From assembly GCA_002762985.1 (NCBI GenBank), contig PCXZ01000018.1:741-64740 (forward strand): a DNA stretch of 64,000 nucleotides, in the 5' to 3' direction. The position numbers and the translations under genes are program-made. The notes beneath the pieces were generated by a model. That model was given only the letters and a program-made list of their open reading frames with translations, ran no database searches and was not told where the DNA came from. The DNA is from Candidatus Woesearchaeota archaeon CG10_big_fil_rev_8_21_14_0_10_44_13. GTDB taxonomy: Archaea; Nanobdellota; Nanobdellia; Woesearchaeales; UBA12501. This document shows, in pieces, positions 105 through 40,631 of this stretch (position 1 is the stretch's first letter; every line of letters starts with the position of its first letter).

Positions 105-119
105 TGTTTTTTCTTCCTC

Positions 120-524: not shown

Positions 525-576
525 ATCACACCTCTTTTTTACCTTTTTTTATAAACTTTATTTACTATGCTTACGA

Positions 577-951: not shown

Positions 952-1038
952 TTTTCCACCTCTTTTTCTTTTTTTATGCTTACCTGATATATATTTTTTG
1001 TTGTCTTGGCTGCCTTTGAACCCGCAATAAGCGGATCA

Positions 1039-2295: not shown

Positions 2296-2343
2296 TTTTC
2301 CTCCTTTAGCTTTTCCTCTTTTGGCATTTTTTATCCTTTATTA

Positions 2344-3561: not shown

Positions 3562-3890
3562 ATGATATTGACCTCTCCTTTCTTCTCAAATTTTTTAACA
3601 GGATTTGCTTGTGATGTTTTAGTGGCATTCTTATGCAAAGTCCCTGTCTTCTGGATACGGCCAGCCTGTTCGATCCCTTTCTCTGTAGCTTCGACTATCC
3701 TGACGTATCTGCTGCTGAAAACTTCCTTGGCAAGGCCCTTGCCTATGAGAAATGTCATGTGGTTGTCGACTGTCTTCCAGTTGATGCCTGTCTCTGATGC
3801 TATCTGGTTCAGTGTTTTCTGGCCGGACACGACATTCTCAAGAATAAGATTCCTCAGTTCTGTAAACAGCCTCTTTTTTTGCTGAACCAT
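3558..3890 (-). CDS. Small winged-helix transcriptional regulator
   Basis: 110 aa, HTH-like segment LNQIASETGINWKTVDNHMTFLIGKGL; start overlaps the GT4 gene by 4 nt (ATGA). Confidence 0.55.
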   Translation of the reverse strand: MVQQKKRLFTELRNLILENVVSGQKTLNQIASETGINWKTVDNHMTFLIGKGLAKEVFSSRYVRIVEATEKGIEQAGRIQKTGTLHKNATKTSQANPVKKFEKKGEVNII

Positions 3891-4152
3891 ATATATCTCC
3901 TATAGACTAGTATACGAAAGGCACTACTAGTTTATAAATTTTTTGCTTTTATAGACATAACTTAATATCATTTTAACTATATATACCAATTATAAAAATA
4001 CTAAGATATATTTATGATATACCTATGTTATGATTAAAAATATAAGATATAGAGAGAGGCATATTTGCAAAATGATTGAGTATTCAATAGTAATGTTAAA
4101 ATTATTTAAATCGAGCTACAGAAGCCTTATCAGGGGTAGAAGGTGAACTAAT

Positions 4153-5976: not shown

Positions 5977-5991
5977 GGCAAGAGGATAAAT

Positions 5992-6945: not shown

Positions 6946-6989
6946 AGGTTTTGAGTTGATTGCTCTATCTTTAATGTGTTTTTCTAACA

Positions 6990-7150
6990 ATTTATGCATC
7001 AAAATCAACATTCCATTCGCCTCCAAGGATGAACTTCCTGATATGGCTCATGCCCTCTTCTTTGATTTGCTGAATTACCCCACTACAACCGCTCCCCAGC
7101 CCAGTACGTTGTAGGAGGGGGACGGGGGGGACCTTGGTCCCCCCGTAGAT
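6990..7150 (-). repeat. Intergenic repeat family, copy F (inverted orientation)
   Basis: Reverse complement matches core ...GAAGAGGGCATGAGCCATATCAGGAAGTT...GGAGGCGAATGGAATGTTGATTTTG and hairpin module TAGGAGGGGGACGGGGGGGACC..GGTCCCCCC. Confidence 0.7.
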
Positions 7151-7294
7151 ATTGTTGGTTTATTTCAAAAACATAAATTTTATGAACAAAAACCTAATAA
7201 AAAAACACAAAACCATCACCAATCCAAAAACTATATAAACAACTTCTTTTCATATACTAATAATAAATATCTAAGTGAAAAAAGAGGGGGCTAA

Positions 7295-9139
7295 ATGACT
7301 AAAGTCGTGCATACATTAGGCAATTCTACACTCCAGGGAGAAACACCTAACCCCCATTTCATCCTCACAAACAAGATAGGAGGTTATTTCTCGCTGAGCG
7401 ATTACCAGTCATCAAGGTATCAGGGGGCGTTCTTCTGCGACAATTTCGACATGTTCAAGGTCATAGAGAATATCCTCCCCTTGAATTCCGGGAAAGTCGT
7501 CAAGGTGACGAATAAATTCTACTGCATAGAGAGGGAGAGGGAGAACGGACTGAAAGAGACATTGTTCATGCCTTTGTTCCACAACTCAATAGGGTATCAG
7601 CTAAGCGCTGAAACAGACATACAGATCGATCTTGATGTGAGAAAAGCGTATGATGTCAGGGAATTCGGCAGGTATTACAGGATCTACAAGGAGAAGGACA
7701 AGATAATCATAGAGTTCACGAAAAAGACAGACAGCAAGGAGGACAAGACGCATGCGAAGCAGGAATTCACGGTCTATGTCGTGATAGACAACGGCAAGGA
7801 GTTCAGGAAAGCCAATGAATTCTACCAGGTCAGCTATCCTTTCGACAGGGAAAGGAACTCATGGCCATGGGAGAGGTATGTGTACAGGTCTATCATAATA
7901 AAAGCGGACAGATTGGTCATCTCGTTCTCCAAGAACAAGAACAAAGCCATACAGGAGAATGAGAAGCTGCTCAGCAACCTCAGGAATGTCAAGGAAAAAC
8001 AGCAGATGTATGTGAATATCACGAAGAAATTCGAGGACGAGAAGATGACGATGGCTTACAGGTCTGCATGCTCATCATTGGACCATCTTGCTAATGTGAT
8101 AAGCAACAAGAAAGGCATCTATGCAGGGTTGTGGTGGTTCTTCCAGTACTGGACAAGGGATGAGGCAGTATCCTTGAGGGCATTGATGATACAGGGGAAA
8201 TACGACCTTGTCAAGGACATACTGTTCAGGAAGCTGAAGGAGATAAAAGACGATGGAAGGATCCCTAACAGGTACCCTGCTTCTGATCTCGAGTCTGCAG
8301 ACGGGATAGGCTGGGTCATGAAGAGATGCTATGACCTGTTCGAGGAATTGTACAGGAAAAACCTCATCACGGAATATCTCTCAAAAGATGACCTCACATT
8401 CATGAAGAAAAAAGTGGAGGATTCCGTCTATATGCTGCTGAAGAGGTATACAGCCCAGGATTTTGCCATAAACAGCAAGCTTGAGACATGGATGGACACT
8501 GAATACAGGGGGGATAACAGGGAAGGTATAAGGATAGAGATTCAGGCATTGAGGCTCTGCACTTACAAGCTCATGAAGCTGCTGTGCAGGACAATGAAGG
8601 ATGATGTGGGCCATAATATGGCTGTCCATCTTGAGAACGACCTTGCGAAAAAAGTGAGGGAGAGGTTCTGGAACGGAAGGTATCTCAAGGACGGTGTCAA
8701 TGATGAGACGATAAGGCCTAATGTGTTCATAGCCCATTATGTATACCCTGAATTGCTGTCCAATTCGCAGTGGGAGAAATGCTTCAAGACGATAATGCCT
8801 AAGCTGTGGAACGGCTGGGGCGGCATCTCGACCATAGACAAGGAAAACCCATTGTTCTGCAACTATCATGCCGGCGAGAACAACCAGAGCTACCACAGGG
8901 GCGACTGCTGGTATTGGCTGAATAACCTTGCGGCAGTATGCATGAATAGGGTCAATAAGAGGAAATTCAAGGAGTATGCTGATAAGATCCTTGAAGCGAG
9001 CACCCATGAGATACTGTTCTCAGGTGCGATAGGCCATCATGCAGAGATAAGCTCTGCTGCCAACAGGGAGAGCAAAGGCTGCTTGATGCAGGCGTGGAGC
9101 GCAGCGATGTACATAGAGATGGTTGAGGAGATGTTCTAA
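7295..9139 (+). CDS. Glycogen debranching enzyme (amylo-alpha-1,6-glucosidase, GDE C-terminal domain family)
   Basis: GLWWFFQYWTRDEAVSLRAL motif; 614 aa. Confidence 0.8.
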   Translation: MTKVVHTLGNSTLQGETPNPHFILTNKIGGYFSLSDYQSSRYQGAFFCDNFDMFKVIENILPLNSGKVVKVTNKFYCIERERENGLKETLFMPLFHNSIGYQLSAETDIQIDLDVRKAYDVREFGRYYRIYKEKDKIIIEFTKKTDSKEDKTHAKQEFTVYVVIDNGKEFRKANEFYQVSYPFDRERNSWPWERYVYRSIIIKADRLVISFSKNKNKAIQENEKLLSNLRNVKEKQQMYVNITKKFEDEKMTMAYRSACSSLDHLANVISNKKGIYAGLWWFFQYWTRDEAVSLRALMIQGKYDLVKDILFRKLKEIKDDGRIPNRYPASDLESADGIGWVMKRCYDLFEELYRKNLITEYLSKDDLTFMKKKVEDSVYMLLKRYTAQDFAINSKLETWMDTEYRGDNREGIRIEIQALRLCTYKLMKLLCRTMKDDVGHNMAVHLENDLAKKVRERFWNGRYLKDGVNDETIRPNVFIAHYVYPELLSNSQWEKCFKTIMPKLWNGWGGISTIDKENPLFCNYHAGENNQSYHRGDCWYWLNNLAAVCMNRVNKRKFKEYADKILEASTHEILFSGAIGHHAEISSAANRESKGCLMQAWSAAMYIEMVEEMF

Positions 9140-9269
9140 GGAAAGGAGTTTTTTGTGGACACCAGACAATATTTTTTATAAGGGGCGCATTTCTTTCCTC
9201 TAAAATTAGCCACACCCAAAACCGCACAACCTCCAATCTATCCCACCCTATCACCTCAAGGTACTCGAT

Positions 9270-9420
9270 TCACAAAAGGGAGGTAGGGGGATTTAGTTGT
9301 GCGCAGTTGCGATTGTTGAATGGGTTTAAATTGTGCGGCCGTGAGCCATATCAGTGGATTGTGTAGTGGAGGCGAACGGGAGGATGAGGGTCGTCGTGAT
9401 GCAAAAAAGTAGGGATGAGC
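9270..9420 (+). repeat. Intergenic repeat family, copy E (diverged 5' module)
   Basis: GTGAGCCATATCAGTGGATTGTGTAGTGGAGGCGAACGG core followed by GTGATGCAAAAAAG tail. Confidence 0.6.
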
Positions 9421-9463
9421 ACAGCAGCTGCTGAACAATAGGGTGGTTTTAATAATACCCATA

Positions 9464-9880
9464 TCACTGTTTCAATTTAGAACTCTTGAACTTGTCCGGC
9501 TGGTATGCATTAAGCCTTCTCACTTCCGCCTTTATGTTCCTCTTCTTCAGCTCTGCCTCGAAATTCTCAGGAAGCTCCTGATCATAGCCCAAACAGATGA
9601 TGTCCGGCCTTGTCTTCTCTATTATGCTGATCTTGTCCTTCAGGTCTCCCATGAGGACATCATCAACTTCCTGGACTTTCTTCACCCTCAAAAGCCTTGT
9701 CGTCTCATTGTTGATAGGGAACAGGCCTTTCGCCTGCTTCACATTAAGGTCTCTGCCTATGACAACAACTAATTTTGAATCCAGACCTCCTGCCTTCTTG
9801 GCCTGGCTGAAGAAATTGAGATGGCCAGGATGCAGGATGTCGAATGTACCGAATACGATTACCTTTTTTGGCGGCGGCAT
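9464..9880 (-). CDS. ribL: Cytidylyltransferase-like nucleotidyltransferase, probable archaeal FAD synthase RibL
   Basis: GTFDILHPGH (GxFDxxHxGH) motif, 138 aa, adjacent to the riboflavin operon. Confidence 0.65.
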   Translation of the reverse strand: MPPPKKVIVFGTFDILHPGHLNFFSQAKKAGGLDSKLVVVIGRDLNVKQAKGLFPINNETTRLLRVKKVQEVDDVLMGDLKDKISIIEKTRPDIICLGYDQELPENFEAELKKRNIKAEVRRLNAYQPDKFKSSKLKQ

Positions 9881-9941
9881 GGATAGCAGTTAGGGGAGGA
9901 GGTTTTTAAAGTTTTTGAAGTTAATCTAAAAAAACAAAAAT

Positions 9942-10589
9942 TTAAAACTTTACTGAAGCAAACCCGCCCAATACATAGGTTGGTCTTTTTCCGCTTCCAA
10001 TGCCGGAGATGTCTGCTGCCGGGCCAATTGTGAATTTGCCTCTTCCAATGCCCAATCTCATCCTTGTCAGGTCATAGTTATAACTATTGTCAGTCATATT
10101 GACGACCTCTTCCATTCTTCCAGCCAGCTTCCATTTTCCGCCTATGCCTTTAGTATAACCTAAAACTCCTGTAAATTCGGTATTTGGGTTTTCGCTGAAA
10201 TTCCTTGTTATTAAAGCATATGCTGTAAGATTTTTCCCTGCTTCCCTGAAATATTGAATTCCCAGCCTTGCATCTAATTCTGAACCGGGGACATATTGTG
10301 TTTCTGCAACAGCATCAAATCCTTTACCCAATGCGTAGCTCAGGTCCACTGACGTAAATGAACCAACCATGCGGCTATCATCTAAAGTTGTCCTGTTCCT
10401 AAGAAAGAAGTTTGCTCTCTTGGCAATCTCCCCGCTAAGCTTTGTGTCTATTGTTGTAGAAACATTGCTGTTGGCATCTGCTCCTGAAACAATCTCCACA
10501 GTGGCGTCTGCTGCCTTTGCAGGGATTGCATTAATCAAAGCAATGTAAACTCCAATGGCCATCATTCCGATTTTCTTTATTGTTGACAT
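9942..10589 (-). CDS. Secreted beta-barrel OMP-like protein
   Basis: Signal peptide ending AKA/AD; Gly/Thr/Ser/Tyr-rich mature part with alternating pattern and a C-terminal ...ASVKF aromatic end. Confidence 0.45.
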   Translation of the reverse strand: MSTIKKIGMMAIGVYIALINAIPAKAADATVEIVSGADANSNVSTTIDTKLSGEIAKRANFFLRNRTTLDDSRMVGSFTSVDLSYALGKGFDAVAETQYVPGSELDARLGIQYFREAGKNLTAYALITRNFSENPNTEFTGVLGYTKGIGGKWKLAGRMEEVVNMTDNSYNYDLTRMRLGIGRGKFTIGPAADISGIGSGKRPTYVLGGFASVKF

Positions 10590-10611
10590 CTTATTTGCCT
10601 CATTTCATCTT

Positions 10612-11022
10612 TCATTTTATTTTATTTAGGGCATGATATTCCTCTAAAGAAATTTTCATTCTTTTTACCTCTTTTTGGAATATATAGGCCATATTCAAAA
10701 GAAGTGCGCCGCAATAAACGGATGTAATCGCAAATAGATTGGAATCCAATGAGGCATTTTCAGAACCTACCAATGAAATCAGTCCAGTGGCAGACATACC
10801 TGCACCCATATACCCTACTGCATTCCTTACTGCCTTCCCCGTTTTTAATCCTGTTTCTAATTGTTCTTCTTTAGACTGATCTTCTGAAGGAAGTTTTAGG
10901 GGATACAATGAGATTTCTAATATTTTATCTGTTATTTCCGATTTGCTGATTGGATAAGTTAATGCTTTGCCCACATAAGGCATCTTTCCGGCTGTTTCGT
11001 TCAGTTTTGTTCTTATTGACAT
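10612..11022 (-). CDS. Hypothetical protein
   Basis: 136-aa ORF with Gly-rich hydrophobic segment. Confidence 0.4.
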   Translation of the reverse strand: MSIRTKLNETAGKMPYVGKALTYPISKSEITDKILEISLYPLKLPSEDQSKEEQLETGLKTGKAVRNAVGYMGAGMSATGLISLVGSENASLDSNLFAITSVYCGALLLNMAYIFQKEVKRMKISLEEYHALNKIK

Positions 11023-11149
11023 TTTCTCAACCTCGATTATTTTTTATCCTAATGTAGTAACAACACCACCTATTATAAATATCTTACCACACCATAACTG
11101 GTATAGCAACCATAAGATTTATATATAAAACCCCCTCAAAACACCAGAT

Positions 11150-11917
11150 ATGGACATTTCAACACTCAAAGAAGCCGGCCTGACAGAAGGAGAGATCAAG
11201 GTATATCTTGCTTTGTTAGAATTAGGCTCCAGCACAACGGGCCCGATAGTTGAGAAATCCAGGATAGCCCGTTCTATTATTTATCAAATTCTAGAAAAGC
11301 TTATGCAGAAAGGCCTTGTCTCTGTCATAACAAAAGAGAAGACAAAATATTTCCAGGCTGCAGAGCCGAATAAGATATTGGATTACATTGATGAAAGGGA
11401 AGAAAGACTGCAGGAAAACAAGGAGATGATTGAAAAACTGCTGCCGGAGCTTGAACTCAAGCAGAAGATGGCTGTGAAGAGCGCGACAAACATGTATTTT
11501 GGTTACAAAGGCATCCGCACAGCACATGAACATCTGTATTTGAAGCTGAAAAAAGGCGAAAGCTATGATTATATGGGCGTCCCTGCTTTCCAGCCAGAAG
11601 AACAGCATCTTTACTGGAAAAGGGATCATGTCAGAAGAATAAAGGCAAAAATAAAAACAAGAATATTATTCAATATAGATGCTGATCAAAACACATTAAA
11701 AAACAGGAATTCATATTGGGGGGTTGATGCAAGATACATGCCTGAAGGGATAAGAACTCCTGCCTGTTTTGCCATCTTCAAGGATACAACAATAATCATC
11801 TTGCAGTCCCCTCATGCCCTCGCAGTAGAAATAATCAATCAGGACATCGCAGACTCATTCCAGGCCTATTTCGAGGAATTCTGGAAGAGGAGTGAGCCGT
11901 TTAAACCAAACCCCTAA
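11150..11917 (+). CDS. TrmB-family transcriptional regulator
   Basis: N-terminal LTEGEIKVYLALLELGSSTTGPIVEKS.IARS.IYQILEKL wHTH; paralog of the 63275.. ORF. Confidence 0.75.
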   Translation: MDISTLKEAGLTEGEIKVYLALLELGSSTTGPIVEKSRIARSIIYQILEKLMQKGLVSVITKEKTKYFQAAEPNKILDYIDEREERLQENKEMIEKLLPELELKQKMAVKSATNMYFGYKGIRTAHEHLYLKLKKGESYDYMGVPAFQPEEQHLYWKRDHVRRIKAKIKTRILFNIDADQNTLKNRNSYWGVDARYMPEGIRTPACFAIFKDTTIIILQSPHALAVEIINQDIADSFQAYFEEFWKRSEPFKPNP

Positions 11918-12483
11918 ATCTCATGCCCCATCTTCTCTCTTTTCGCATCAAGATACCTCTTGTTATGCCCGTTCGGCTGGACAACGATGGGTATCCTCTC
12001 AGAGACCTCTATGCTTCCGTTCAGCCCCTTTATCTTCTCAGGATTATTCGTGATCAGCCTTATCTTCTTCAGACCGAGATCCTTCAGGATTGCGACAGCA
12101 GCAGAATAATCCCTCTCATCGGCCCTGAAGCCCAGCTGGTGGTTGGCTTCGACTGTGTCCATGCCTTTGTCCTGCAATGAATATGCCTTCATCTTGTTCA
12201 GCAAACCTATGCCCCTGCCTTCCTGCCTGAGATAGATCAAAACACCGTTCCTGCCTTCAGCGATAATCTGCATTGATCTTTCAAGCTGCTCCCTGCAGTC
12301 GCATCTCAATGAGAAAAGAGCCTCTCCTGTCAGGCATTCGGAATGGATCCTTACAAGAGCGCCATCTTCAGGATTCCCTGCTACCAAGGCCATGTGGCAT
12401 TTCTCTCCTTCAGAATAGGGGATCAGCCTGAACTGCCCGAATTTTGTGGGAAACTTCACCTCATCCCCTTTATTTAGCCTCAT
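11914..12483 (-). CDS. ribA: GTP cyclohydrolase II
   Basis: RIHSECLTGEALFSLRCDCREQL zinc-binding motif. Confidence 0.85.
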   Translation of the reverse strand: MRLNKGDEVKFPTKFGQFRLIPYSEGEKCHMALVAGNPEDGALVRIHSECLTGEALFSLRCDCREQLERSMQIIAEGRNGVLIYLRQEGRGIGLLNKMKAYSLQDKGMDTVEANHQLGFRADERDYSAAVAILKDLGLKKIRLITNNPEKIKGLNGSIEVSERIPIVVQPNGHNKRYLDAKREKMGHEI

Positions 12484-18622: not shown

Positions 18623-18734
18623 GGGGATTTTTTAACAGGAATATATTTCTTATAATATTGAATGGTTTGTTTACATTTAATATCCAACATTATTTGCGGG
18701 ATAGATATGGTAATCTTTTATAGGACATACAACC

Positions 18735-18910
18735 TTATCTGAGGGGGAACGCGGTTCCCCCCGTCCCCCTCCTATAACGCAACTATGTTGGAGAGCAGTT
18801 GTTTGCGGGCAGTTGAGCGAGATAATGAAGAGAGCATGAGCCATATCCAGAAGTTCTGCGATGGAGGCGAATGGAAGGGGGATGATACAAAAAACTTAAA
18901 ATTGAAATAT
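18735..18910 (+). repeat. Intergenic repeat family, copy A
   Basis: TTATCTGAGGGGGAACGCGGTTCCCCCCGTCCCCCTCCT hairpin module, GAGCCATATCCAGAAGTTCTGCGATGGAGGCGAATGG core, GATGATACAAAAAACTTAAAAT tail. Confidence 0.7.
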
Positions 18911-19040
18911 GGGAGAATAACGAGTAGGTAACTCACCAGTAATCAAAATCCAAAAACATCTATTCTTTATAATACAACATCAAGAATATATTATTCATCG
19001 CAACATTATTTAAAAACAAAATGCCACAACACCTTTATGC

Positions 19041-20157: not shown

Positions 20158-21606
20158 TTACCCTCCTTTTTTGTCCAATTTCAAATCATCATCCTGATTG
20201 TAGTGCAGATCGTATCTCAATGCCAATTCTGCCTTCTGGAGCTCTGAACCTATGTCCAAAGCATGGCTCATCTGAGAGATGACATGTTTCCTGTCAAGCA
20301 TCCTGAATATCTCTGCTGCGTTCCTGCCCCTGAACTCGTCCAGCTTCTTGCCTTCCTGGCTGTAATGCGAGATCACAATCTCTTTCTTCTCCTTATCCAC
20401 CTTTATCACAACATTGCCTCTTGGGTCCCATTCATGCTCCTTGCCCTTGTAATATATGTCAAGGATCTCCTGAACTTCTTTCATGCTCTCTTCATATATA
20501 TGGGCAGAAGCCGAGAATATTGTCATAGAGCCCATCTTTATCCCTGTCTCTTCAGAAACGTGCTTCTGGAGTTTCCTCAGCGCAAAGGCGTTCTGCGGCC
20601 ATCCCCTGTACATGTCATGGCTCCTGAAATATGCATTCATGAACAGCCTGTTGTCCTGCACGATGAAATTGACAAGGTCAAGGCATGGCGCATGCTCGTT
20701 ATACACATCCTTGCCAACATCCCATGTGACTGCTATGGCTCTCCTTGTGAAAGGCTCTTTCTTCAGCTTTTCTATGACTGACCTTATCTGGTCTACGCCT
20801 TCATGATCCATTAGCCTCTGGCCATAGGTGTAGTTTATGCCCTGGATTTTGTTGGCAGTCAGGACTTGGGGGTAATATGCCTCAAGCTCTTTTTTCGTGA
20901 AATTGAAGAAATCGTACCATCTCGGCTCTTCGGGGTCTTCGTCAGTTATTACAGCGACGATATTGAGCAGCTCTTTCTGCGTAGTGCTGTGGTGGCTTTT
21001 CTTTATGTGGCCGAACCTCATTATCTTGCTAAGGAGGATTATCCATGCCATCCCGACTGTCTTCGCCCTTATCTTGAATACAGAGCTGTCTGTAGGGAAT
21101 CTTTCAGGCAGCTCAAGCTTTGGCTCTGGGAAAAGCCTTGGCTTCCCAAAAGGCTTCCTGCCCTTGTCAATAGAACCTATCCTTTCTGCTATCTTCTTCG
21201 GATCGATCACTCCGATCATATTTATTATCTCAACATTCTTCCTGAATTCTGCAACCGCTTCATCAGGTATCTCTTTCTCTATGTGTGCGTTTTCAACTCC
21301 GAGAATGTTATGCCTGCTGTCTATGCCGTTTTTTGCCAGGCTTAAAAGCGCTTCACCGCTCCCTGACTTGTCTGTGCCGCAAAGGATTATGTATCTTATC
21401 GCAGGATTCGCGAATATGTTCCTTATTATGGCATTTATGCCTGCCTTCGAGTACAATTGGCCGATTGTAGAGAAAGAATTCCTGTCAAGGCCTTTCGCTA
21501 TCATCTCTTTCTCAGTCCACAAGGTGATTATGCTGATATTGCTGTCCTTATCACCGACTATAAGATTCTCAGAAAAATAAATAGGCCATCCCTCCTTCAT
21601 CTGCAT
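20158..21606 (-). CDS. thyA: Thymidylate synthase (ThyA family) with an ~170-aa N-terminal extension of unknown function
   Basis: C-terminal TS domain with RRAIAVTWD and HAPC nucleophile motifs; 482 aa in total. Confidence 0.75.
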   Translation of the reverse strand: MQMKEGWPIYFSENLIVGDKDSNISIITLWTEKEMIAKGLDRNSFSTIGQLYSKAGINAIIRNIFANPAIRYIILCGTDKSGSGEALLSLAKNGIDSRHNILGVENAHIEKEIPDEAVAEFRKNVEIINMIGVIDPKKIAERIGSIDKGRKPFGKPRLFPEPKLELPERFPTDSSVFKIRAKTVGMAWIILLSKIMRFGHIKKSHHSTTQKELLNIVAVITDEDPEEPRWYDFFNFTKKELEAYYPQVLTANKIQGINYTYGQRLMDHEGVDQIRSVIEKLKKEPFTRRAIAVTWDVGKDVYNEHAPCLDLVNFIVQDNRLFMNAYFRSHDMYRGWPQNAFALRKLQKHVSEETGIKMGSMTIFSASAHIYEESMKEVQEILDIYYKGKEHEWDPRGNVVIKVDKEKKEIVISHYSQEGKKLDEFRGRNAAEIFRMLDRKHVISQMSHALDIGSELQKAELALRYDLHYNQDDDLKLDKKGG

Positions 21607-22308: not shown

Positions 22309-22401
22309 ATTATCAGGTTTTTATATAGTTTGTGGTGGTAAAAGTTTAAGGTTGTTTTGTTTATAGTGCTATTATTGGCAGAAGGAATTTTTTTACATAG
22401 A

Positions 22402-22513
22402 ACGCCGCCATCACCGCGGCTCGACGATCTCCTCACGTCGTTCGGAGCCCTACTCGGCACCCCGGAGGGGCCGACCCCCGCCTCGCCGAGCGCAGTGGCG
22501 GCGTGCGCAGGAC
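22402..22513 (+). other. GC-rich structured island, candidate cis-regulatory or small RNA upstream of the ACS gene
   Basis: ~110 nt of >70% GC in a ~40% GC genome; 9-bp terminal helix (ACGCCGCCA / TGGCGGCGT) enclosing at least two internal hairpins. Confidence 0.3.
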
Positions 22514-22566
22514 AAAACAAAAAAATATATAAACCAACCAATAAAATAATGTTATCAGGGGGTTTT

Positions 22567-24564
22567 ATGGACGTCGTAAAGACTATATTCGAAGGAGCGA
22601 AAAAACTGCTTGCATTGGCAGAGAAAAGCCTTAAAGAAGGTGATGTGAAGCCTTTTTCTGATACTGAGTACAATCTTCCTGTAGTATATGCGCTGTTCGG
22701 CAGGGAGATAAAGGGAAAAGAGGATGCTGCTGAGATTCTCGATAAGATAAGGAAAAAGCTAGAGAAAGAGCAGACATTGGAGAATGCTCTAAAGGCAGGG
22801 GTTTATTCTTATGCCCTGCTGGAGCTTGTTGAAGCCGTAAAATATGCTAAAGAGAATAAGACCAATTTCATCCCTGACACTGTGATAAGGAGCCTGGGCC
22901 TGCCTCTGGTCAATGGGACGATCCCTGGCGTCGCTGTTGTTGTCGGAAAGGCAAAAGACGAAGAGGAGATGAAAAAAGTCCTTGAGGAAGCTGTCTCACA
23001 TGCGCTACTTGTCCTTGTTGTCGGAGAATGCTGCAATCAGTATGATAAGACAAAATTTACTCCTGAGAAAAATGTCATCCCTATAGGCGCAGAACCCACA
23101 AACCTTGCCCACGTCATGAATATTGTGTTTAGGATACCGATGATCTTCGCAAAGATACCTCCTGGAGAGAAAAAAGAGATAGAAGAGTATATAACGGAGA
23201 GGGTTCCTGCTTTTGTGGTGGTTCTCGGAGAGATTGATGAGGTTGTTTTAGCTTTGGGAGCCGGCTGTTTAAGGTTAGGATTTCCAATCACTACAACAAA
23301 TGAAGCTGGAAAAGCAGTGGAACAAATCTTTGTAGGCCCTGCAGAAAAACTTATTGATGAAGGTGTAAAAAGAAAGGGGATTAAATCGAAGAAACTGGAC
23401 ATAAGACTGCCTATGGGCTATGGGAACCTTTATGTCGGGGAAACGATAAGGAAAGAGGATATGGCCCTGGAATTCGGCGGGAAGAAGTCAAAGGCATTCG
23501 AGCTTGTCCAGAAAGATGATTCCATAGAAGACGGTAAAGTCGAGATCATCGGCAAGGACATTGATGGCCTTGCAGAGAATGCGAATGTGGGTTTGATAGT
23601 CAGTGTGGCAGGAGACTTTGAGAAGGATGCAGAGCCTGTGTTCGAGAGGATGATACATGAGCACCTCAATAAGATAGAGGGATTCATGCATCTCGCTTCA
23701 AGGGATATCATATGGTGCAGGTTCTCCAATGAGGCCAAGAAGAAAGGGCTGAAGCTGAAGAATCTGGGAGAAGTCCTTGTGAGATCGATGAAACAGGAAT
23801 TCCCATTGATAGAGAAGGCTTCAGCGACAATAATAACAGATGATGATGAGTTCAGCAAGCAGCTTGCGCATGCGAAACATGTCTACAAGGAGAGGGATGA
23901 CAGGATAAAAGGCCTTACAGAGGAGAATGTGGATATGTTCTATGGCTGCACTATGTGCCAGAGCTTCGCCCCTAATCATGTATGTGTCATAACACCCGAG
24001 AGGATTGCGCTGTGCGGCGCGATAACATGGCTGGATGCAAAGACTGCGATGAAGATAAATCCTTCTGGCATGAATTTTGAGATACCTAAGGGAAGCATCA
24101 TTGACAATGAGAAGGGGGAATATGAAGGTGTGAATAAGATCGTGAAGCAGAAATCCCACGGCAAGATCGACCGTTTCCATCTCCATTCGATATTCGGCTT
24201 CCCGCATACAAGCTGCGGCTGTTTTGAAGCGATCGCGTTCTATATCCCTGAAGTCGACGGCATAGGCATTGTGCACCGTGATTTCAAGGGAGAAACCCCT
24301 ATCGGGATGAAATTTTCCACTCTTGCAGGAATGACTGGAGGAGGGCTGCAGTCAGAAGGGCTGATCGGAGTGGGAACTGCTTATGTTGCATCTAAGAAAG
24401 CGTTCCTGGGCCAGGGCGGCAGGGGGAAGATAGTTTGGCTGCCGAAGGAGCTGAAAGAGAGGTATAAGGATGATATTCCTGCTGAGATTTTTGGGAAGAT
24501 TGCGAGTGAGGAGGATGTGAAGGATATAAATGAGCTGCAAAAATGGGTTGATGGAAAGAAATAG
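22567..24564 (+). CDS. acsB: Acetyl-CoA synthase catalytic subunit (AcsB/CdhC family), bacterial-length
   Basis: C-x2-C-x8-C-x9-C ... (+67) C-G-C spacing identical to the A-cluster ligands of Moorella AcsB; YVGETIRKEDMALEFGG middle-domain motif; alternative start at 22549. Confidence 0.8.
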   Translation: MDVVKTIFEGAKKLLALAEKSLKEGDVKPFSDTEYNLPVVYALFGREIKGKEDAAEILDKIRKKLEKEQTLENALKAGVYSYALLELVEAVKYAKENKTNFIPDTVIRSLGLPLVNGTIPGVAVVVGKAKDEEEMKKVLEEAVSHALLVLVVGECCNQYDKTKFTPEKNVIPIGAEPTNLAHVMNIVFRIPMIFAKIPPGEKKEIEEYITERVPAFVVVLGEIDEVVLALGAGCLRLGFPITTTNEAGKAVEQIFVGPAEKLIDEGVKRKGIKSKKLDIRLPMGYGNLYVGETIRKEDMALEFGGKKSKAFELVQKDDSIEDGKVEIIGKDIDGLAENANVGLIVSVAGDFEKDAEPVFERMIHEHLNKIEGFMHLASRDIIWCRFSNEAKKKGLKLKNLGEVLVRSMKQEFPLIEKASATIITDDDEFSKQLAHAKHVYKERDDRIKGLTEENVDMFYGCTMCQSFAPNHVCVITPERIALCGAITWLDAKTAMKINPSGMNFEIPKGSIIDNEKGEYEGVNKIVKQKSHGKIDRFHLHSIFGFPHTSCGCFEAIAFYIPEVDGIGIVHRDFKGETPIGMKFSTLAGMTGGGLQSEGLIGVGTAYVASKKAFLGQGGRGKIVWLPKELKERYKDDIPAEIFGKIASEEDVKDINELQKWVDGKK

Positions 24565-24600
24565 TTATGTAATTTTAACCTGACATTTCAAAAATATTTG

Positions 24601-24800
24601 TGGGGAAACTACGTTTCCCCTTACCCCCTTCCTACATTGTGCTGGGAAGGGGAGCAAAAGCAGGCATTCAGGTGAGTTGTTTAAGGCAAAGAAGAGGGCA
24701 TGAGGCATATAGGGAAGTTGTGTGATGGAGCCGAATGGAATGTTGTTTTTGAAAAAAACAACTAAGAAAACCGAAGGTTTTCTGTTGAGGAAAAAATAGT
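24601..24800 (+). repeat. Intergenic repeat family, copy C (between acsB and cooC)
   Basis: TGGGGAAACTACGTTTCCCCTTACCCCCTTCCT hairpin module; CATGAGGCATATAGGGAAGTTGTGTGATGGAGCCGAATGG core; second hairpin GTTGTTTTTGAAAAAAACAAC. Confidence 0.7.
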
Positions 24801-24823
24801 TTTATGGGGAAAAGATTATTAAA

Positions 24824-25564
24824 ATGATAGTAGCAATCTCAGGCAAAGGCGGCGTAGGCAAGACAGTCTTCTCAGCTTTGACCATAAAATACCTCACGTC
24901 AAAAGGGAAGAAAGTCCTTGCTGTCGATGCAGACCCTGATGCGAACCTTGCAGAGGCCCTCGGTGTTGAAGTCGAGAACAGCATCGGCGGGATAAGGGAG
25001 GAATTGCAGAAGATCCAGCACAAGATACCTGGCGGACTGACAAAAGAGGCTTTCCTGCAGAGGAAGATACAGGAGATAATAAGCGAACATAAGGGTTTCG
25101 ACCTTCTTGTTATGGGGCGTGCAGAAGGCCAGGGCTGCTATTGCTGGGTCAACAACATATTGAGAGAAAACATAGACAAATTATCTGCCAATTATGATTT
25201 CACAATAATCGACTGTGAAGCGGGGCTTGAGCATCTGTCAAGAAGGACGACAAAAGATGTTGATATTATGTTCGTAGTGCTTGACCAATCAAGGCTTTCC
25301 CTTAACACTGCATTAAGGATAAAAGAGCTGGCAAAAGAGGTTGATATAAATTTCAAGAAGCTTTTCATAGTGCAGAACAAGGGCCAGAACAAGAACTTTG
25401 AGAAAGAGGCAGGGAAGGAAGGAATCAAGGTCATTGGAGTCCTGCCTGAAGACAATGAGATCGTGAGGCTGTACAGCGAGGGGAAAGCCATAACTGGCAT
25501 AAGCGAGAAGGCAAATGCTTATTATTCTGTCAAACAGGTTTGGGAGAACCAAAATATTTATTAA
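24824..25564 (+). CDS. cooC: CooC/AcsF-type Ni-insertion ATPase (MinD/ParA family)
   Basis: Deviant Walker A SGKGGVGKT and GQGCYCW CxC nickel-binding motif; 246 aa. Confidence 0.8.
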   Translation: MIVAISGKGGVGKTVFSALTIKYLTSKGKKVLAVDADPDANLAEALGVEVENSIGGIREELQKIQHKIPGGLTKEAFLQRKIQEIISEHKGFDLLVMGRAEGQGCYCWVNNILRENIDKLSANYDFTIIDCEAGLEHLSRRTTKDVDIMFVVLDQSRLSLNTALRIKELAKEVDINFKKLFIVQNKGQNKNFEKEAGKEGIKVIGVLPEDNEIVRLYSEGKAITGISEKANAYYSVKQVWENQNIY

Positions 25565-25603
25565 CTCTCCCCGAATCCTCCCTCTCATGAAAGGGGGTTC
25601 AAT

Positions 25604-26212
25604 ATGAGGATTTCTGCAGTCATAGAAGCTGATACTATAGAGAGCGCCCACCCCAAGGTCCTGGAATTGATCCATAATGAGGGGGATGAGCACAGCGACG
25701 AGTATGGGGCCAAGACAAGGGAAGTCTTCAACCTAATGATAAAGGTGAAGAACCCGACAGAGAAGATGATTCCGCATGCTTTCCACATGACGAAGATGGA
25801 ATTGGAGGAGTATGCCCTCAAATATTACCTCAGCCCGAAAGTCGAAGGCGAAGTCTACACCTATGGGGAAAGGATGCTTGATTTCAAAGGGGATGGGGAA
25901 TACAACCAGATCCAGCATATCATCGACAAGCTCAAGAAGAATGCAAACTCAAGGAGAGCTGTTGTTGTCTTATGGGATCCCACAAGGGATGGGACAAAGA
26001 TTGAGCATCCTCCGTGCATGGACATGCTGGTGTATAACCTCAGGAACGGGAAGCTCCATTGCACTTCTGTTTTCAGGAGCAATGACATGCTGAGGGCATG
26101 GCCGGCCAATGCATTCGGGATAACAAGATTGCAGGAATTCATCGCAGGAGAGATAGGATGCGAAGTCGGCACATTGACGACAATGTCAATAAGCGCGCAT
26201 ATTTATCTGTGA
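25604..26212 (+). CDS. thyA: Thymidylate synthase, short archaeal type (ThyA family)
   Basis: SRRAVVVLWD and EHPPCMD nucleophile motifs; 202 aa; paralog of the 20158..21606 ORF. Confidence 0.75.
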   Translation: MRISAVIEADTIESAHPKVLELIHNEGDEHSDEYGAKTREVFNLMIKVKNPTEKMIPHAFHMTKMELEEYALKYYLSPKVEGEVYTYGERMLDFKGDGEYNQIQHIIDKLKKNANSRRAVVVLWDPTRDGTKIEHPPCMDMLVYNLRNGKLHCTSVFRSNDMLRAWPANAFGITRLQEFIAGEIGCEVGTLTTMSISAHIYL

Positions 26213-26220
26213 GGATATCC

Positions 26221-27231
26221 ATGAAAACTAAAACGATATTGATTTTGGCAATTCTATGCATCTTCATTGTTTCATGCAGCGAGCAGCCTGGACAGCCTGA
26301 AGAAACAGGAGCCAAAGACACTAAAGCAGTTCAAACAATCCAGGAGGAAGCCAAAGCGCCTGAAATAACAAGAGAAAGCAAAATCCCTTCAGATGCAGTT
26401 AAGGTTACTCCTCAGACAGACATCAATCCTCCAAAATCAAAATCAGACGAATACGATGACCCTATTCCTTTATCCTCGGCAATCAACAGCGCAGGAGCTG
26501 AAGATTCCCCATTCATGATGCCAGATGGAAACACATTATATCTCTTCTTCACGCCCGATGTAAGGGTCCCTGTTGAAAAACAGCTTCTTGACGGTGTCAC
26601 AGGAATTTGGGTTTCAAAAAAAGTGATTGGAGAATGGGGCAAACCTGAAAGAGTTGTGCTCCAGGACCCTAAAAAGCTTGCGCTGGACGGCTGCGAGTTC
26701 GTCCTCGGCAGCACGATGTGGTTCTGCTCTGCACGGGAAGGCTATGCAGGCATAAACTGGTTCACAGCAGAATTCAAGGATGGGAAATGGCAGGATTGGA
26801 AGAGTGCGGATTTTAACCCTGATCATAAAGTAGGAGAGCTGCATATCTCAAATGACGGCAATGAGCTTTATTATCATTCAGACAGGCCCGGCGGCAAAGG
26901 CGGCCTGGACATCTGGGTGTCAAAAAAGGTCAATGGGGAATGGCAGCAGCCGGAAAATGTTGAGGCAGTCAACTCAGAGAGGGATGATGGGTGGCCTGCA
27001 TTGAACCCTGAGGAGAATGAGCTTTGGATTTACAGGGATTACGGGCTGTTGAGGTCAAAGAAAATCAATGGAGAATGGCAGACGCCTGAACCGATGTTCT
27101 CGCCGCTTGCGGGCGAAGCGACACTGGACAATGAAGGGAATGTCTATTTTGTCCATCATTATTTCAAGGACGATAAGATGATAGAAGCGGATATTTACGT
27201 TGCGCATAAAAAAGCGGTAAAACGGCGGTAA
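26221..27231 (+). CDS. Lipoprotein with PD40/TolB-like beta-propeller repeats
   Basis: MKTKTILILAILCIFIVSCSEQ lipobox; repeated DGN.LYF/YHSDRPGGKGG.DIWVS units. Confidence 0.55.
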   Translation: MKTKTILILAILCIFIVSCSEQPGQPEETGAKDTKAVQTIQEEAKAPEITRESKIPSDAVKVTPQTDINPPKSKSDEYDDPIPLSSAINSAGAEDSPFMMPDGNTLYLFFTPDVRVPVEKQLLDGVTGIWVSKKVIGEWGKPERVVLQDPKKLALDGCEFVLGSTMWFCSAREGYAGINWFTAEFKDGKWQDWKSADFNPDHKVGELHISNDGNELYYHSDRPGGKGGLDIWVSKKVNGEWQQPENVEAVNSERDDGWPALNPEENELWIYRDYGLLRSKKINGEWQTPEPMFSPLAGEATLDNEGNVYFVHHYFKDDKMIEADIYVAHKKAVKRR

Positions 27232-27241
27232 GGTGAATAGG

Positions 27242-27712
27242 ATGAAAGCAAAAATCATGGTTTTGGCCTTTATTGTGATGTTCGCATTGAGCGGCTGCGG
27301 AAGCACAAAGTGGGATATCTTCAAGGACGGGAAATTCAGCATAAGCTATCCTGTGATGAATATGGGCAAAGACCTGAATGAGAACCTGATGCTGCAGACA
27401 GGCAATTCCAGATGCATGCTCCTGGTGAACAAGTACCCTGGGCAGTCAGACGTGAAGGGATTCGCAAACTACATAAAAGACCTGCTGACAAAAGAACCTG
27501 CAACGACAATCACAAGCGAGGACATCAATGACTCAGAAGCCAATTTTGAACTGAGGGTCATCTACAGCAACAAGCCGTACATCTCAAAAGTCAAGTTAGT
27601 GTCGTGCGAAGGTGCAATGTACAATATAATGATGAACTGCCAGGAAAACGGCTATGAAAAGAATGCCCAGGATGTGGAATCCACACTAAGCTCGGTAAAA
27701 TGCAGTGAATGA
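27242..27712 (+). CDS. Lipoprotein, function unknown
   Basis: MKAKIMVLAFIVMFALSGCGS lipobox. Confidence 0.5.
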   Translation: MKAKIMVLAFIVMFALSGCGSTKWDIFKDGKFSISYPVMNMGKDLNENLMLQTGNSRCMLLVNKYPGQSDVKGFANYIKDLLTKEPATTITSEDINDSEANFELRVIYSNKPYISKVKLVSCEGAMYNIMMNCQENGYEKNAQDVESTLSSVKCSE

Positions 27713-27716
27713 GTGA

Positions 27717-28484
27717 ATGATAAACAAGACAAGGATAGGCGATATCGAAATCGGAGGGGAATCGAGATTCTTCAGGTTCGAAGAGAAAGATGATTTCAGG
27801 ATGGCATTCGCCCTTGCATATGATGAGCATAACCCAAAAATCATCGAAGAGAATGATGTGGATGCTGTCGCTATAACTATAAGAAGTGATAATCCTGAGG
27901 AAGCGATAAAGCAGGTCGAGGATTTCAGGAGTAGATGCAAGAAGCCGTTGATAATCTACACCCAGGACAACCCTAACACCGACCATATAATCATAGATGC
28001 TATAGCAAGGAGATTCCCCGGCCAGCATTTCCTTTTCTGCTCAGCGACAGTCAAGAACAAGGCGGCAGATATAGCGAATTCCGCCCTCAAGTTCGGCCAC
28101 AATGTAAGCGCTTATACGACATTGGATCCTGGCGGAGCCATCTCCCTTAACAAAGACCTCTTGAAGACGGGCCTGAAGCCTAAGCAGATCGTCATCGACC
28201 CGCTGACATCATTCATAGGGTATGGCATTGAATACTCTATAAGCGCGATGGAGAGGATAAGGCTGGATGCATTAGCCACAGACGAGACATTGAGGATGCC
28301 TATTCTTGCAGACCTGTCCGCTGTAAACCAGCTGAGAGAGGCCGATACGAAGGAAAAACAGCTCCATTGGGAGACCATGACTGCAGTCGCATTGATCGCT
28401 GCAGGCGCTGACCTGTTCATATTCAGGCACATAGAATCGCTGAGGAAAGTGAAGGGATTCGCAGAAAAGATGAAGAAGAGATAA
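27717..28484 (+). CDS. acsD: Corrinoid iron-sulfur protein small subunit (AcsD/CdhD family)
   Basis: IVIDPLTSFIGYGIEYSISAMERIRLDAL and WETMTAVALIAAGADLFIFRH match AcsD motifs recalled from Moorella. Confidence 0.7.
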   Translation: MINKTRIGDIEIGGESRFFRFEEKDDFRMAFALAYDEHNPKIIEENDVDAVAITIRSDNPEEAIKQVEDFRSRCKKPLIIYTQDNPNTDHIIIDAIARRFPGQHFLFCSATVKNKAADIANSALKFGHNVSAYTTLDPGGAISLNKDLLKTGLKPKQIVIDPLTSFIGYGIEYSISAMERIRLDALATDETLRMPILADLSAVNQLREADTKEKQLHWETMTAVALIAAGADLFIFRHIESLRKVKGFAEKMKKR

Positions 28485-28521
28485 TGCACACATGAGATAA
28501 ACAGCCGAGGTAAAAAACAAT

Positions 28522-29649
28522 ATGAAACTGAGCCCATTCAACCTTTATCCGCATCTTCCGAAGAAGAACTGCAGGGAATGCGGGGAATCCACATGCCTGG
28601 CTTTCGCCGTGAAGCTGCTGAACAGGGAAGCAGAGCTTGAGAAATGCCCGCATGTCAATGATGAACAGAAATCAAAGCTTAAGGCCATGTTCGAGCCGCC
28701 TGTGAAAGAGATAAGATACAAAGGATATAAGATGGGGGGAGAAGAGGTGATTCACAGGCATGAGCTGACATTCCATAATCTTCCGCTAATTGCATCGAAA
28801 AACAGGCCGGATATATTTTTTGAGAGGGCTGGCAAGAGGATGTCTGTTGAGCTTAAAGAGGCTCAGGATGACATCGGCGGGATCATATGGTGCAAAGAGA
28901 AGGCAAGAGCAGATGAATCCATAGAGAAGGCAAAAAAGGATGATCTGCCCGTGATAATGAGGGTGAATTCGATAGAAGAGGCAAAATCATTCTCAACAAG
29001 ATATGACAAGATCATGGTTGAATTCCACGGCTCTCCTGCAGAGGTCTTCAGGAATCTCAAGGATTACAGGGAGAGGGCGATAAAGGGTGAGCAGGGATGC
29101 AATCTTCCGACGATGTTCCTGGCTGATGATGAGGCAGAAGCGGCTTATGCATTGATGAGGTATGCGAATATTGTCGTGATAAACAACGAGGAAAAGGAAT
29201 TCCTTGAGCCATTCATGTATCTGCGCCAGGCGATATTCTCTGACCCGAGGATCCCTGCAAAAGTGGATGCTATACTCTACAAGATAGGGACTCCTGATGA
29301 GAACAGCCCTATCTTCGTCGTAGGAAATTATGCCCTGACATATTACACTGTCTCAGGCGACATAAACTCCCAGAAGATAAACTCCTATCTCATCGCATTC
29401 GACACTGAGGGTTTGAGCGTCTGGACAGCAGTCGCTGCCAATAAGTTCCTCCCTTCAAAGATAAGAGAGGTAATTGAAAACTCAAGGCTTTCTGAGAGGG
29501 TGAAGAACAGGACTCTGGTCATCCCGGGCTTCGCAGCGCCCTTAAAGGGAGCGATTGCAGAGGAAACCGGATGGAAGGTGGTTGTAGGGCCTGAGGACAG
29601 CAGGGAGATAGGGAATTTTATAGAGGAGATGAAAAGAGAGAAGCAATGA
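28522..29649 (+). CDS. acsC: Corrinoid iron-sulfur protein large subunit (AcsC/CdhE family), shortened
   Basis: N-terminal C-x2-C-x4-C-x16-C [4Fe-4S] motif (CRECGESTC...C); 375 aa. Confidence 0.7.
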   Translation: MKLSPFNLYPHLPKKNCRECGESTCLAFAVKLLNREAELEKCPHVNDEQKSKLKAMFEPPVKEIRYKGYKMGGEEVIHRHELTFHNLPLIASKNRPDIFFERAGKRMSVELKEAQDDIGGIIWCKEKARADESIEKAKKDDLPVIMRVNSIEEAKSFSTRYDKIMVEFHGSPAEVFRNLKDYRERAIKGEQGCNLPTMFLADDEAEAAYALMRYANIVVINNEEKEFLEPFMYLRQAIFSDPRIPAKVDAILYKIGTPDENSPIFVVGNYALTYYTVSGDINSQKINSYLIAFDTEGLSVWTAVAANKFLPSKIREVIENSRLSERVKNRTLVIPGFAAPLKGAIAEETGWKVVVGPEDSREIGNFIEEMKREKQ

Positions 29650-40318: not shown

Positions 40319-40450
40319 TCTAATCCCCCAAATCATCCCTCTGATATAGTTAACAATATATCTATTTATATATCTTTGTTGTAATTTTAGAATGAAAACA
40401 GGGCGTATTAAACAAAAAGATTTATAAATAAGGCCTAAAACAGCCAAAGT

Positions 40451-40630: not shown

Positions 40631-40631
40631 A

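Follow-up and report, generated by a model that had tools for sequence, protein, structure and literature searches.

Background

Small sequences recurring in many copies have been described in prokaryotes in several forms. The BOX repeats of Streptococcus pneumoniae, as well as ERIC, RUP and the Correia/NEMIS elements, are intergenic, devoid of open reading frames (ORFs), predicted to form RNA structures and not accompanied by an adjacent mobilizing enzyme. The MITEs (miniature inverted-repeat transposable elements) of archaea and bacteria, such as SM1-SM4 of Sulfolobus, are likewise small, non-coding and multicopy; they are patchily distributed, present or absent at orthologous sites, and defined by terminal inverted repeats and target-site duplications. 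Elements derived from IS200/IS605, namely PATEs, REP/REPIN sequences and the omega-RNAs of TnpB, have neither of these features and display a hairpin near one end as well as seamless empty sites. Finally, the RsaE/RoxS-type small RNAs (sRNAs) of the Firmicutes carry, beside a hairpin, an unpaired or semi-paired C-rich tract complementary to ribosome-binding sites. A family of dispersed units that resembles each of these in part is described here from a DNA stretch of 64,000 nt (the window, positions 741 to 64,740 of contig PCXZ01000018.1) of Candidatus Woesearchaeota archaeon CG10_big_fil_rev_8_21_14_0_10_44_13, a Crystal Geyser Woesearchaeote belonging to the DPANN archaea. A sequence-only reading of the window had reported six intergenic copies and proposed a MITE-like element or a structured small RNA. 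The present analysis favors, with a probability slightly below one half (about 0.48), a promoter-carrying structured-RNA unit whose copies would multiply and disappear, in some Woesearchaeota-type archaea, in the manner of a non-autonomous mobile element.

The order boxA-boxB(n)-boxC of the BOX repeats finds a parallel in the succession of 5' module, core, AU hairpins (0-3) and 3' module that characterizes the family. In contrast to the BOX-type repeats, however, the family is archaeal, shows no sequence similarity to them, displays a TATA-like box in each unit and possesses an internal core which is conserved with compensatory changes across distant genomes; the terminal inverted repeats of Correia and RUP were not found in it. 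Neither of the two defining features of MITEs was found and no parent insertion sequence is known. The resemblance to the IS200/IS605 derivatives extends to a possible strand bias and to a structured RNA of similar size, but the family has no matching hairpin at the other end, lacks the doublet symmetry of REPINs and matches neither IS605-orfB nor HEARO in Rfam, and no TnpA, RAYT or TnpB was seen. RsaE/RoxS-type sRNAs are single-copy bacterial molecules of about 100 nt with a terminator, whereas the family is multicopy, larger and of a different architecture; the likeness provides a functional lead only. Literature searches returned nothing relevant to a published description of the family.

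Copies in the window

The copies were numbered 1 to 6 according to their position in the window, copy 3 being the one at 18735-18910. The core pattern TGAGSCATATN{18,21}GSCGAAYGG has five matches in the window, at 7013-7050 on the - strand and at 9342-9379, 18837-18874, 24701-24738 and 62621-62659 on the + strand, with 0 expected from 100 shuffles. Among the families returned by a repeat search of the window are those of the 5' hairpin (D1), the core (D4), the A-rich tail (D6) and the inverted copy (I1-I4). The sixth member, copy 5 (53568-53672), has only its 5' ~100 nt in common with the others. Together with nhmmer, these searches bore out six copies at about the positions first reported; the nhmmer envelopes indicate units somewhat longer than the original spans, with lengths of about 225, 250, 215, 243, 105 and 265 nt for copies 1 to 6 and a sum of ~2% of the window. 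All copies are intergenic, as had been claimed, and the mechanical ORF 6757-7026 (- strand) overlapping copy 1 is without support. Misassembly, envisaged in the sequence-only reading, is countered by two contigs from other samples: a Logan assembly (L014) is 100% identical to positions 12357-34564 of the window and a JGI contig (L049) is 100% identical to positions 1-12295. Between them, four copies are covered and the similarity extends beyond a single contig or assembly. The six copies are real members of a previously uncatalogued dispersed non-coding family, not an artifact.

Some details of the first description had to be amended. The 5' ends of copies 3 and 6 (its copies A at 18735 and B at 62517) had been given as identical over 36 nt; they differ by one mismatch (GAGGGGG vs GAGGAGG) and the longest identical run is 28 nt. 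The set of shared modules was confirmed by reading the six places, except that the copy at 9270-9420 lacks the 5' hairpin and that the one at 53607-53700 retains only the 5' part.

Modular organization

The unit length ranges from about 170 to 260 nt. From its 5' end, a unit displays an A/T-rich TATA-like box, a GC-rich hairpin termed P1 (type 1) or another 5' domain (type 2), the C-rich motif GUCCCnCCC and a variable region, followed in the 3' part by a purine linker, the core hairpin, 0-3 AU-rich hairpin modules, a G-rich strand leading to UGAUGC, and A6. The purine linker AAAGAAG is found in all copies, with a UUGUG variant in some. The consensus of the core is 5'-CCRU GA GCCAU [AUC N6 GUUGUGCG] AU (GGA) GGC GA AYGG-3', and in all copies it precedes GGAAUG(U/A)UGA, a G-rich stretch and then (R)UGAUGC with A6. 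The AU-rich hairpins are located between GGAAUGUUGA and UGUUGAGGG; none is present in copies 1, 2 and 3, two are present in copies 4 and 6, and more in L024a (loci outside the window are designated by L and a number).

Type 1 includes copies 1, 3, 4, 5 and 6, L029 and L017, in which an 8-bp GC hairpin is followed by CGUCCCCCUCCU. Members of type 2 (copy 2, L032, L030 and L024b) start with TTTTTATTTsCCTCwAAAAyTA..CCCAsCC and carry (A/G)UCCCRCCC. The 5' domains of L024a, L039 and L003 contain GC hairpins of other kinds. GUCCCnCCC is common to nearly all subfamily members.

Copy 3 (type 1, + strand) illustrates this organization. It extends from 18701 to 18913 (nhmmer envelope ending at 18930) and is detected by nhmmer with E=4e-59 and by the covariance model described below with 75.2 bits. 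The TATA-like box CTTTTATAGG is located at about 18714-18723, ahead of the P1 hairpin GGGGGAAC-GCG-GUUCCCCC (18743-18761), a perfect inverted repeat of 8 bp. The C-rich tract CGUCCCCCUCCU at 18762-18774 corresponds to GUCCCnCCC and can pair with the 3' G-rich tract at 18875-18884. The conserved core, delimited at 18823-18882 by the covariation count and the covariance model, opens with AAUGAAG. Its helix is made of C18835-U18837 with A18871-G18873, then GCC/GGC (18840-42 with 18866-68) and AU/AU, interrupted by a tandem G.A (18838-39 with 18869-70) and a GGA bulge (18863-65); the loop contains AUAUC and GUUcUGCG. The 3' module (18875-18896) comprises the G-rich strand, AUGAUAC and the A6 tract.

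Secondary structure of the core

The core was aligned from 12 sequences (alignment A3) and its helix was read from the sequences. Across this alignment, 93.5% of the cells of the nine core pairs are paired. Four of the nine pairs are changed on both sides, namely 15-53 (seven copies with A-U, five with G-C, mispairs absent), 16-52 (U-A or C-G), 20-48 (C-G or G-C) and 21-47 (C-G or G-U). The covariation score of the helix was reached by none of 500 shuffles, and the paired cells amounted to 23-44% in a control where the partner was slid by 1-3 columns. An invariant 5'-GA/5'-GA tandem, in a Y-GA-R context in every copy, separates the helix halves; the pyrimidine-GA-purine context favors sheared G.A pairs. 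A covariance model (CM R1) built from the same alignment gives 63-84 bits to the known copies and background scores to control loci. It also retrieves L030b, outside the training set, with E=1.4e-7 despite a hairpin insertion of ~60 nt in the loop. The P1 hairpin, for its part, occurs in three self-complementary versions: GGGGGAAC/GUUCCCCC, GGGGAAAC/GUUUCCCC (copies 4, 5 and L017) and GGGGGGAC/GUCCCCCC (copy 1 and L029). These sequence comparisons support a conserved RNA secondary structure with compensatory changes in the core.

The + strand of the unit is the probable RNA strand, as judged from the pairing rules and from predicted stability. Five G.U cells and no A.C cells are counted in the core, and the G.A tandem becomes C.U/U.C on the other strand. 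The minimum free energy (MFE) of copy 3 is -56.1 kcal/mol (z=-3.3) on the + strand versus -45.2 kcal/mol (z=-1.5) on the - strand. One A.C in P1 of copy 6 speaks against the + strand. In the predicted fold of copy 3, the C-rich tract is paired with the 3' G-rich tract; RNAalifold, applied to the type 1 copies, prefers a different long-range helix over this pairing.

The remaining copies are defined as follows. Copy 1 (type 1, 6960-7185, - strand; nhmmer E=2e-62, CM R1 72.6 bits) has its P1 hairpin at 7144-7125 and its core at 7064-7005; a deletion in its 3' part has removed the segment between two UGUUGA motifs. Copy 2 (type 2, 9190-9440, + strand; E=2.5e-41, 69.3 bits) has its core at 9328-9387 and ends in GUGAUGC-AAAAAAG, with a deviating 5' domain that reads TTTCCTCTAAAATTAGCCACACCC...AUCCCACCCUAUCACCUC from near 9195. 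Copy 4 (type 1, 24561-24803, + strand), detected by both nhmmer and the covariance model, carries P1 at 24602-24620, the core at 24687-24746 and AU-rich hairpins at about 24742-24762 and 24766-24782. Copy 5 (53568-53672, + strand, nhmmer E=6e-11) is degraded, with only its 5' module recognizable (P1 at 53610-53628) and a possible core remnant, GCUGAGCCAUUAUAGC, near 53747-53762. Copy 6 (type 1, 62483-62746, + strand, nhmmer envelope ending at 62725) contains P1 at 62525-62543, with the A.C mismatch mentioned above, and a core at 62607-62667 that lacks the GGA bulge; its AU-rich hairpins are located at 62663-62685 and at about 62690-62705, and its 3' end is GAGGGAGAUGAUGC-A6. Outside the window, the member at L030 3086-3250 (- strand) has two extra hairpins (~60 nt) in the core loop and lies ~45 nt upstream of a co-oriented tRNA-Arg gene (3074-2999).

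Comparison with known RNA and protein families

At gathering thresholds, Rfam 15 gave no match in the window or in the copy-carrying loci; in E-value mode, single copies and six loci produced only chance snoRNA-type matches with E of at least 0.14. No tRNA was detected in the copies by ARAGORN. The possibility raised at the outset that the copies are fragments of a known rRNA or tRNA thus received no support from any rRNA, tRNA or Rfam match. Two resemblances to rRNA were considered: CCGGAAGUU, present in two copies, recalls loop C of 5S rRNA, and GGGGAAC..GCGGUU..CCUCCU recalls the 3' end of 16S rRNA. Since the copies vary in the 6-nt segment of the loop and none of the rRNA models gives a score, the likeness is taken as a coincidence or, at most, functional mimicry. 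A K-turn was rejected because the G.A tandem is not adjacent to a 3-nt bulge and the adjoining R-Y pair covaries as Watson-Crick. The alignment likewise led to rejection of a C/D box and of a hammerhead core, CUGA being 5' and UGAUG 3', which is the wrong order.

A coding explanation would require a small protein gene, or the remnant of a protein gene, reading MSHI.K.CDGGEWN on the sense strand or IPFAS.AQLPDMAHGRFF on the antisense strand. The former resembles a Shine-Dalgarno (SD)-ATG-MSHI... arrangement, in that an ATG or GTG follows a GAGG-like site, but L024b has GCG instead of a start codon, L030b has the 60-nt insertion, and the loop length of 19 or 20 nt breaks the frame in copy 6, L029 and L024b. 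The antisense frame is stop-free and reads IPFAS.AQLPDMAHGRFF in most copies, with synonymous R/Y sites; ORFs starting from its ATG comprise 3-55 aa with unrelated tails, and this frame, too, is interrupted in copy 6, L029 and L024b. As the covarying R and Y fall on third antisense codon positions, antisense coding was tested directly. No three-base periodicity was observed (0.51/0.51/0.50 and 0.62/0.49/0.43 bits at codon positions 1/2/3), and a profile of the antisense peptide built from four window peptides found no homologues, with 0 matches among 1.84 billion representative proteins. The coding explanation is effectively refuted. The family does not code for protein, and it is neither a gene fragment nor an RNA family already known.

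Promoter-like boxes and gene context

In all seven type 1 copies, P1 is preceded by an A/T-rich box (for example CTTTTATAGG, TAATTTTAA, AAAATTTATG or GTTATATGG), the distance to its first G being 21-30 nt; in type 2 copies, a T-rich box (TTTTTATTT) precedes the conserved part of the RNA by about 24 nt. The leaderless genes of the host genome have TTTATA(T/A)A boxes 23-26 nt before the ATG. The box-to-P1 spacing matches the TATA-to-start spacing of these genes, and the role of the box is predicted on this sequence basis. In copies 3 and 5, a second 5' motif CAACAWTATTKG is located exactly 45 nt upstream of the first (18685-18700 and 53552-53566), followed by CGGG/CGCC and TAGATATG; nearly the same motif occurs in the dut promoter region (19001-19012). 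Either a duplication of the promoter box or what is left of a nested or truncated copy could account for this second CAACAWTATTKG.

In 9 of 13 copies, the A6 end is located 23-70 nt past the stop codon of a convergent gene, and in the other four a co-oriented gene or tRNA follows, a split which is not significantly off chance. No consistent position before a class of co-oriented genes was found, three of the six window copies and 4 of 13 overall preceding such a gene. The genes neighboring the copies are unrelated (dut, cooC, a gene for a GGDEF protein, a tRNA). These observations do not support a riboswitch or cis-regulatory leader. Another cis-acting role, that of an intergenic mRNA stabilizer, processing site or terminator-insulator comparable to REP/BIME or BOX and co-transcribed with its neighbors, would agree with the strictly intergenic location, with the A6 end (T6 on the other strand) past convergent stop codons, with the location of copy 4 inside the acs operon and with a modular build as in BOX. 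Orientation relative to the neighbors (9 convergent, 4 tandem) is however not uniform, and a conserved, covarying core of 60 nt is not needed for a terminator. Moreover, T6 comes first on the antisense strand, so that transcription from the neighboring gene would miss most of the unit. This explanation is considered improbable.

Most host genes have GAGGUG, GGAGG or GGGGG before the start codon. The C-rich tract (CCCCCUCC, or AUCACCUC in copy 2 and L032) is complementary to such SD-like sites, and the AUCACCUC of type 2 copies matches the conserved 3' end of 16S rRNA; the tract might be an anti-SD seed, a proposal made with low confidence. An sRNA interpretation goes further and regards the units as a vertically inherited, non-mobile family of paralogous trans-acting sRNAs whose C-rich tract would pair with ribosome-binding sites, the copies differing in their targets. 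It would account for the core covariation, the TATA-like box before each unit, the C-rich motif common to all subfamilies in a host where SD-like sites are widely used, the sharing of subfamilies between distant genomes and the conservation of an orthologue. It is at odds with the absence of the family from most related genomes, syntenic ones included, with one copy placed inside an operon junction, with degraded or truncated copies and a varying number of AU hairpins, and with the fact that the most similar copies are never syntenic; the C-rich tract of copy 3 is, in addition, predicted to be paired within the RNA itself. Paralogous sRNAs of this kind are rather unlikely.

Distribution among genomes

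The neighboring genes of the window are archaeal (NMD3, TFIIS-type zinc ribbon, MtrA-like, MJ0043_C), and its XPD helicase is 100% identical to a database protein. An exact-pattern scan of 185,579 species genomes returned 13 loci, of which 12 are chance matches in unrelated coding DNA and one, L003, is a true relative from a metagenome-assembled genome of "Candidatus Nanoarchaeia". Among the 27 loci returned by a scan of metagenomes, the true relatives are five Ga0210057 contigs and two contigs identical to L003. The Ga0210057 contigs (L024, L029, L030, L032 and L039) originate from one sample, have a GC content of 0.45 and hold seven copies in 49.5 kb. The core pattern has no match in IMG/VR, and two looser viral scans (57 loci) gave only three nhmmer matches, with E 0.3-0.9; a viral or plasmid origin was rejected on account of these background-level results. 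In three related Woesearchaeota (L045-L048; XPD 58-69% identical), one of them syntenic with the window, nhmmer and the covariance model found no copy in 72 kb. Given the seven copies in Ga0210057 and the absence from these relatives, the family is abundant where present and absent from most relatives. Its distribution is patchy and restricted to a few Woesearchaeota-type DPANN genomes.

Gain, loss and presumed spread of copies

Copy 4 occupies a site for which filled and empty states were both found. In the window, 259 nt lie between the stop codon of acsB (24564) and the start codon of cooC (24824). In L015, whose AcsB and CooC are 84% and 86% identical to those of the window, the two genes are one base apart (TAA-A-ATG) and the site is empty. 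L016 has two other ORFs at this position, and L017 (AcsB 81%) has the same element after acsB, up to the end of the contig. Copy 4 and its orthologue in L017 are identical at 54 of 57 aligned bases (95%), with acsB itself at 75% over the last 300 nt and 79% over the last 1500 nt, a difference which suggests selection on the element. In L045, the syntenic intergenic region has kept the downstream promoter but lacks copy 5; in L052, copy 2 is not present downstream of the GDE gene. Between genomes, copy 2 and L032 are 84% similar over 200 nt, and copy 6 and L024a 83%, in unrelated and non-syntenic flanks. The similarity of these pairs is comparable to that between copies of the window (68-83%). 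Copies 1 and 5 are visibly decayed.

As regards target-site duplications, the direct repeats flanking copies 1, 4, 6 and L029 are no better than those of shuffles, and that of copy 3 is the second copy of the 5' motif rather than flank. A TATG target site was also rejected: in copies 3 and 5, TAGATATG is part of the unit itself and is better explained as a TATA-like box. When copies 2, 3 and 6 were scanned with their flanks for terminal inverted repeats, nothing appeared beyond internal hairpins and short, AT-rich pairs due to chance. Neither a transposase nor a reverse transcriptase was found in the 64-kb window, and no Y1 transposase, RAYT, TnpA or TnpB in the window or in the fetched loci. 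The earlier statement that transposase and terminal inverted repeats are lacking agrees with these searches. As to the nature proposed at the same time, a structured RNA and mobile-like behavior both gained support, whereas a strict MITE is not supported: the family is short, non-coding, multicopy and has empty orthologous sites, but neither inverted repeats, duplications nor a transposase were found.

An explanation at the DNA level would be a PATE-like non-autonomous transposon derived from IS200/IS605 and mobilized in single-stranded form by a transposase whose gene is elsewhere, with no role for the RNA. Hairpins and covariation would then reflect recognition of the folded single strand; DNA hairpins, too, can accommodate G.T and G.A pairs. 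The absence of inverted repeats and duplications, the seamless empty site of L015, the GC hairpin near a left end with conserved 5' flank, the presence of five of the six window copies on one strand and the patchy distribution of decaying copies are all in keeping with such an element. Several features are not. A right-end hairpin like the left one is absent, the GC-rich P1 being found only at the 5' side and the 3' hairpins being AU-rich and unrelated; TnpA and TnpB are absent from the 64 kb and from every fetched locus; the apparent left-flank TATG is inside the unit in copies 3 and 5; conservation is strongest in the internal core, not at the ends; and the orthologous copy is much better conserved than the coding sequence beside it. 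A PATE-like transposon is regarded as unlikely.

A related explanation considers the units as omega-RNA-like guide scaffolds, borne by non-autonomous elements and serving a TnpB-type, IscB-type or other RNA-guided protein encoded elsewhere. The size of about 150-250 nt, the structured and conserved scaffold in several orphan copies, the lack of inverted repeats or duplications and the seamless empty site would suit this role. Against it, no such protein was found in any locus examined, the Rfam models IS605-orfB and HEARO do not match, and a conserved A6 tract stands between the conserved 3' end and the variable flank. A guide scaffold of this sort is very improbable.

Other features of the window and related contigs

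A low-GC island (GC 0.32-0.38 versus about 0.45 elsewhere) spans positions 44000-52800 and is absent from the syntenic L045, where the distance from XPD to a 135-aa ORF is about 1.1 kb instead of about 9.4 kb. It contains two tyrosine-recombinase ORFs (44780-45289, + strand; 51670-52404, - strand) and codes for LemA, uridine-kinase-like and 2'-5' RNA-ligase-like proteins; it is probably an integrated mobile element or provirus. No copy of the repeat family is located inside this integrase island (44-52.8 kb) or at its borders.

The region 22357-29649 codes for a bacterial-type fused alpha/beta subunit (AcsB) of carbon monoxide dehydrogenase/acetyl-CoA synthase (CODH/ACS), together with CooC, CdhD-like and FeS subunits. 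Homologues of AcsB are found in three metagenomic relatives (81-84%), the nearest named one being otherwise that of Methanocaldococcus infernus (47%). The TTG start of AcsB at 22357 is probably too far upstream because the family alignment begins at residue 72. A GGDEF (diguanylate cyclase) protein is encoded at 53874-55052 and is kept with its promoter in the Woesearchaeote L045 (14107-15159). At 20158-21606 (- strand), a 480-aa protein adjoining thymidylate kinase combines MtrA-like, thymidylate-synthase and pterin-binding (DUF4346) Pfam matches, an unusual fusion. Short direct repeats (D2, D3) at 38306-41310 (- strand) lie in or near a 713-aa ORF (38306-40447) with no Pfam match and suggest an internally repetitive product, perhaps a coiled coil. 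Finally, a GC-rich intergenic stretch of ~310 nt in L051 (1250-1560), between NMD3 and a GDE gene 78% identical to that of the window, matches nothing in Rfam even at E<=10 and does not resemble the repeat family; possibly it represents another structured RNA, for which a divergent signal recognition particle RNA or RNase P RNA are candidates.

Interpretation and significance

According to the favored reading, each unit would be transcribed from its + strand into an RNA whose invariant element is the core hairpin, probably recognized by a protein acting in trans, and whose 5' C-rich and 3' G-rich tracts would close the molecule. New copies would arise by a duplicative or transpositional process, the copies being gained, lost and decaying over time.

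A number of observations weigh against this reading. The ~14 distinct sequences available are related and mosaic, which inflates the shuffle-based covariation, and the pair that covaries best coincides at the same time with third codon positions in the antisense frame (CAY, CCR). No consistent closing helix was found across copies, the helix search giving differing partners for each copy; of the structural elements, the core hairpin and P1 alone have good support. Whole-unit MFE z-scores, taken over 12 copies, are modest and do not separate the strands (mean -1.2 vs -1.6). No oligo-T terminator was seen after the + strand units and T/A-rich boxes are also present upstream in the antisense direction, which leaves a few G.U pairs and the G.A tandem as the basis for assigning the strand. 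No transposase, reverse transcriptase, inverted repeats or duplications were found that would indicate a mechanism of spread, and loss rather than gain could explain some empty sites.

A variant centered on the RNA itself was also considered, in which the family would be a selfish element new to archaea. It would be either SINE-like, with its own promoter, A-tract and RNA intermediate, or composed of orphan scaffold or guide RNAs serving an unrecognized RNA-guided or RNA-binding DPANN protein. In either form, the core hairpin with its sheared G.A tandem and its AUAUC...GUUGUGCG loop would represent a protein handle and the variable 5' domains would provide specificity. Such a selfish element is decidedly unlikely.

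From a practical standpoint, the family may serve as a marker for strain tracking, and it can mislead gene callers and binning. One copy is located inside the acs operon, which encodes CODH/ACS. DPANN genomes are small and streamlined, yet ~2% of the 64 kb examined here consists of one non-coding family that is outside Rfam. If the units are mobile, they would constitute a new type of non-autonomous element in a clade whose transposable elements are poorly charted. If they are transcribed, they would represent a new archaeal class of structured RNA with a core of the protein-binding type.

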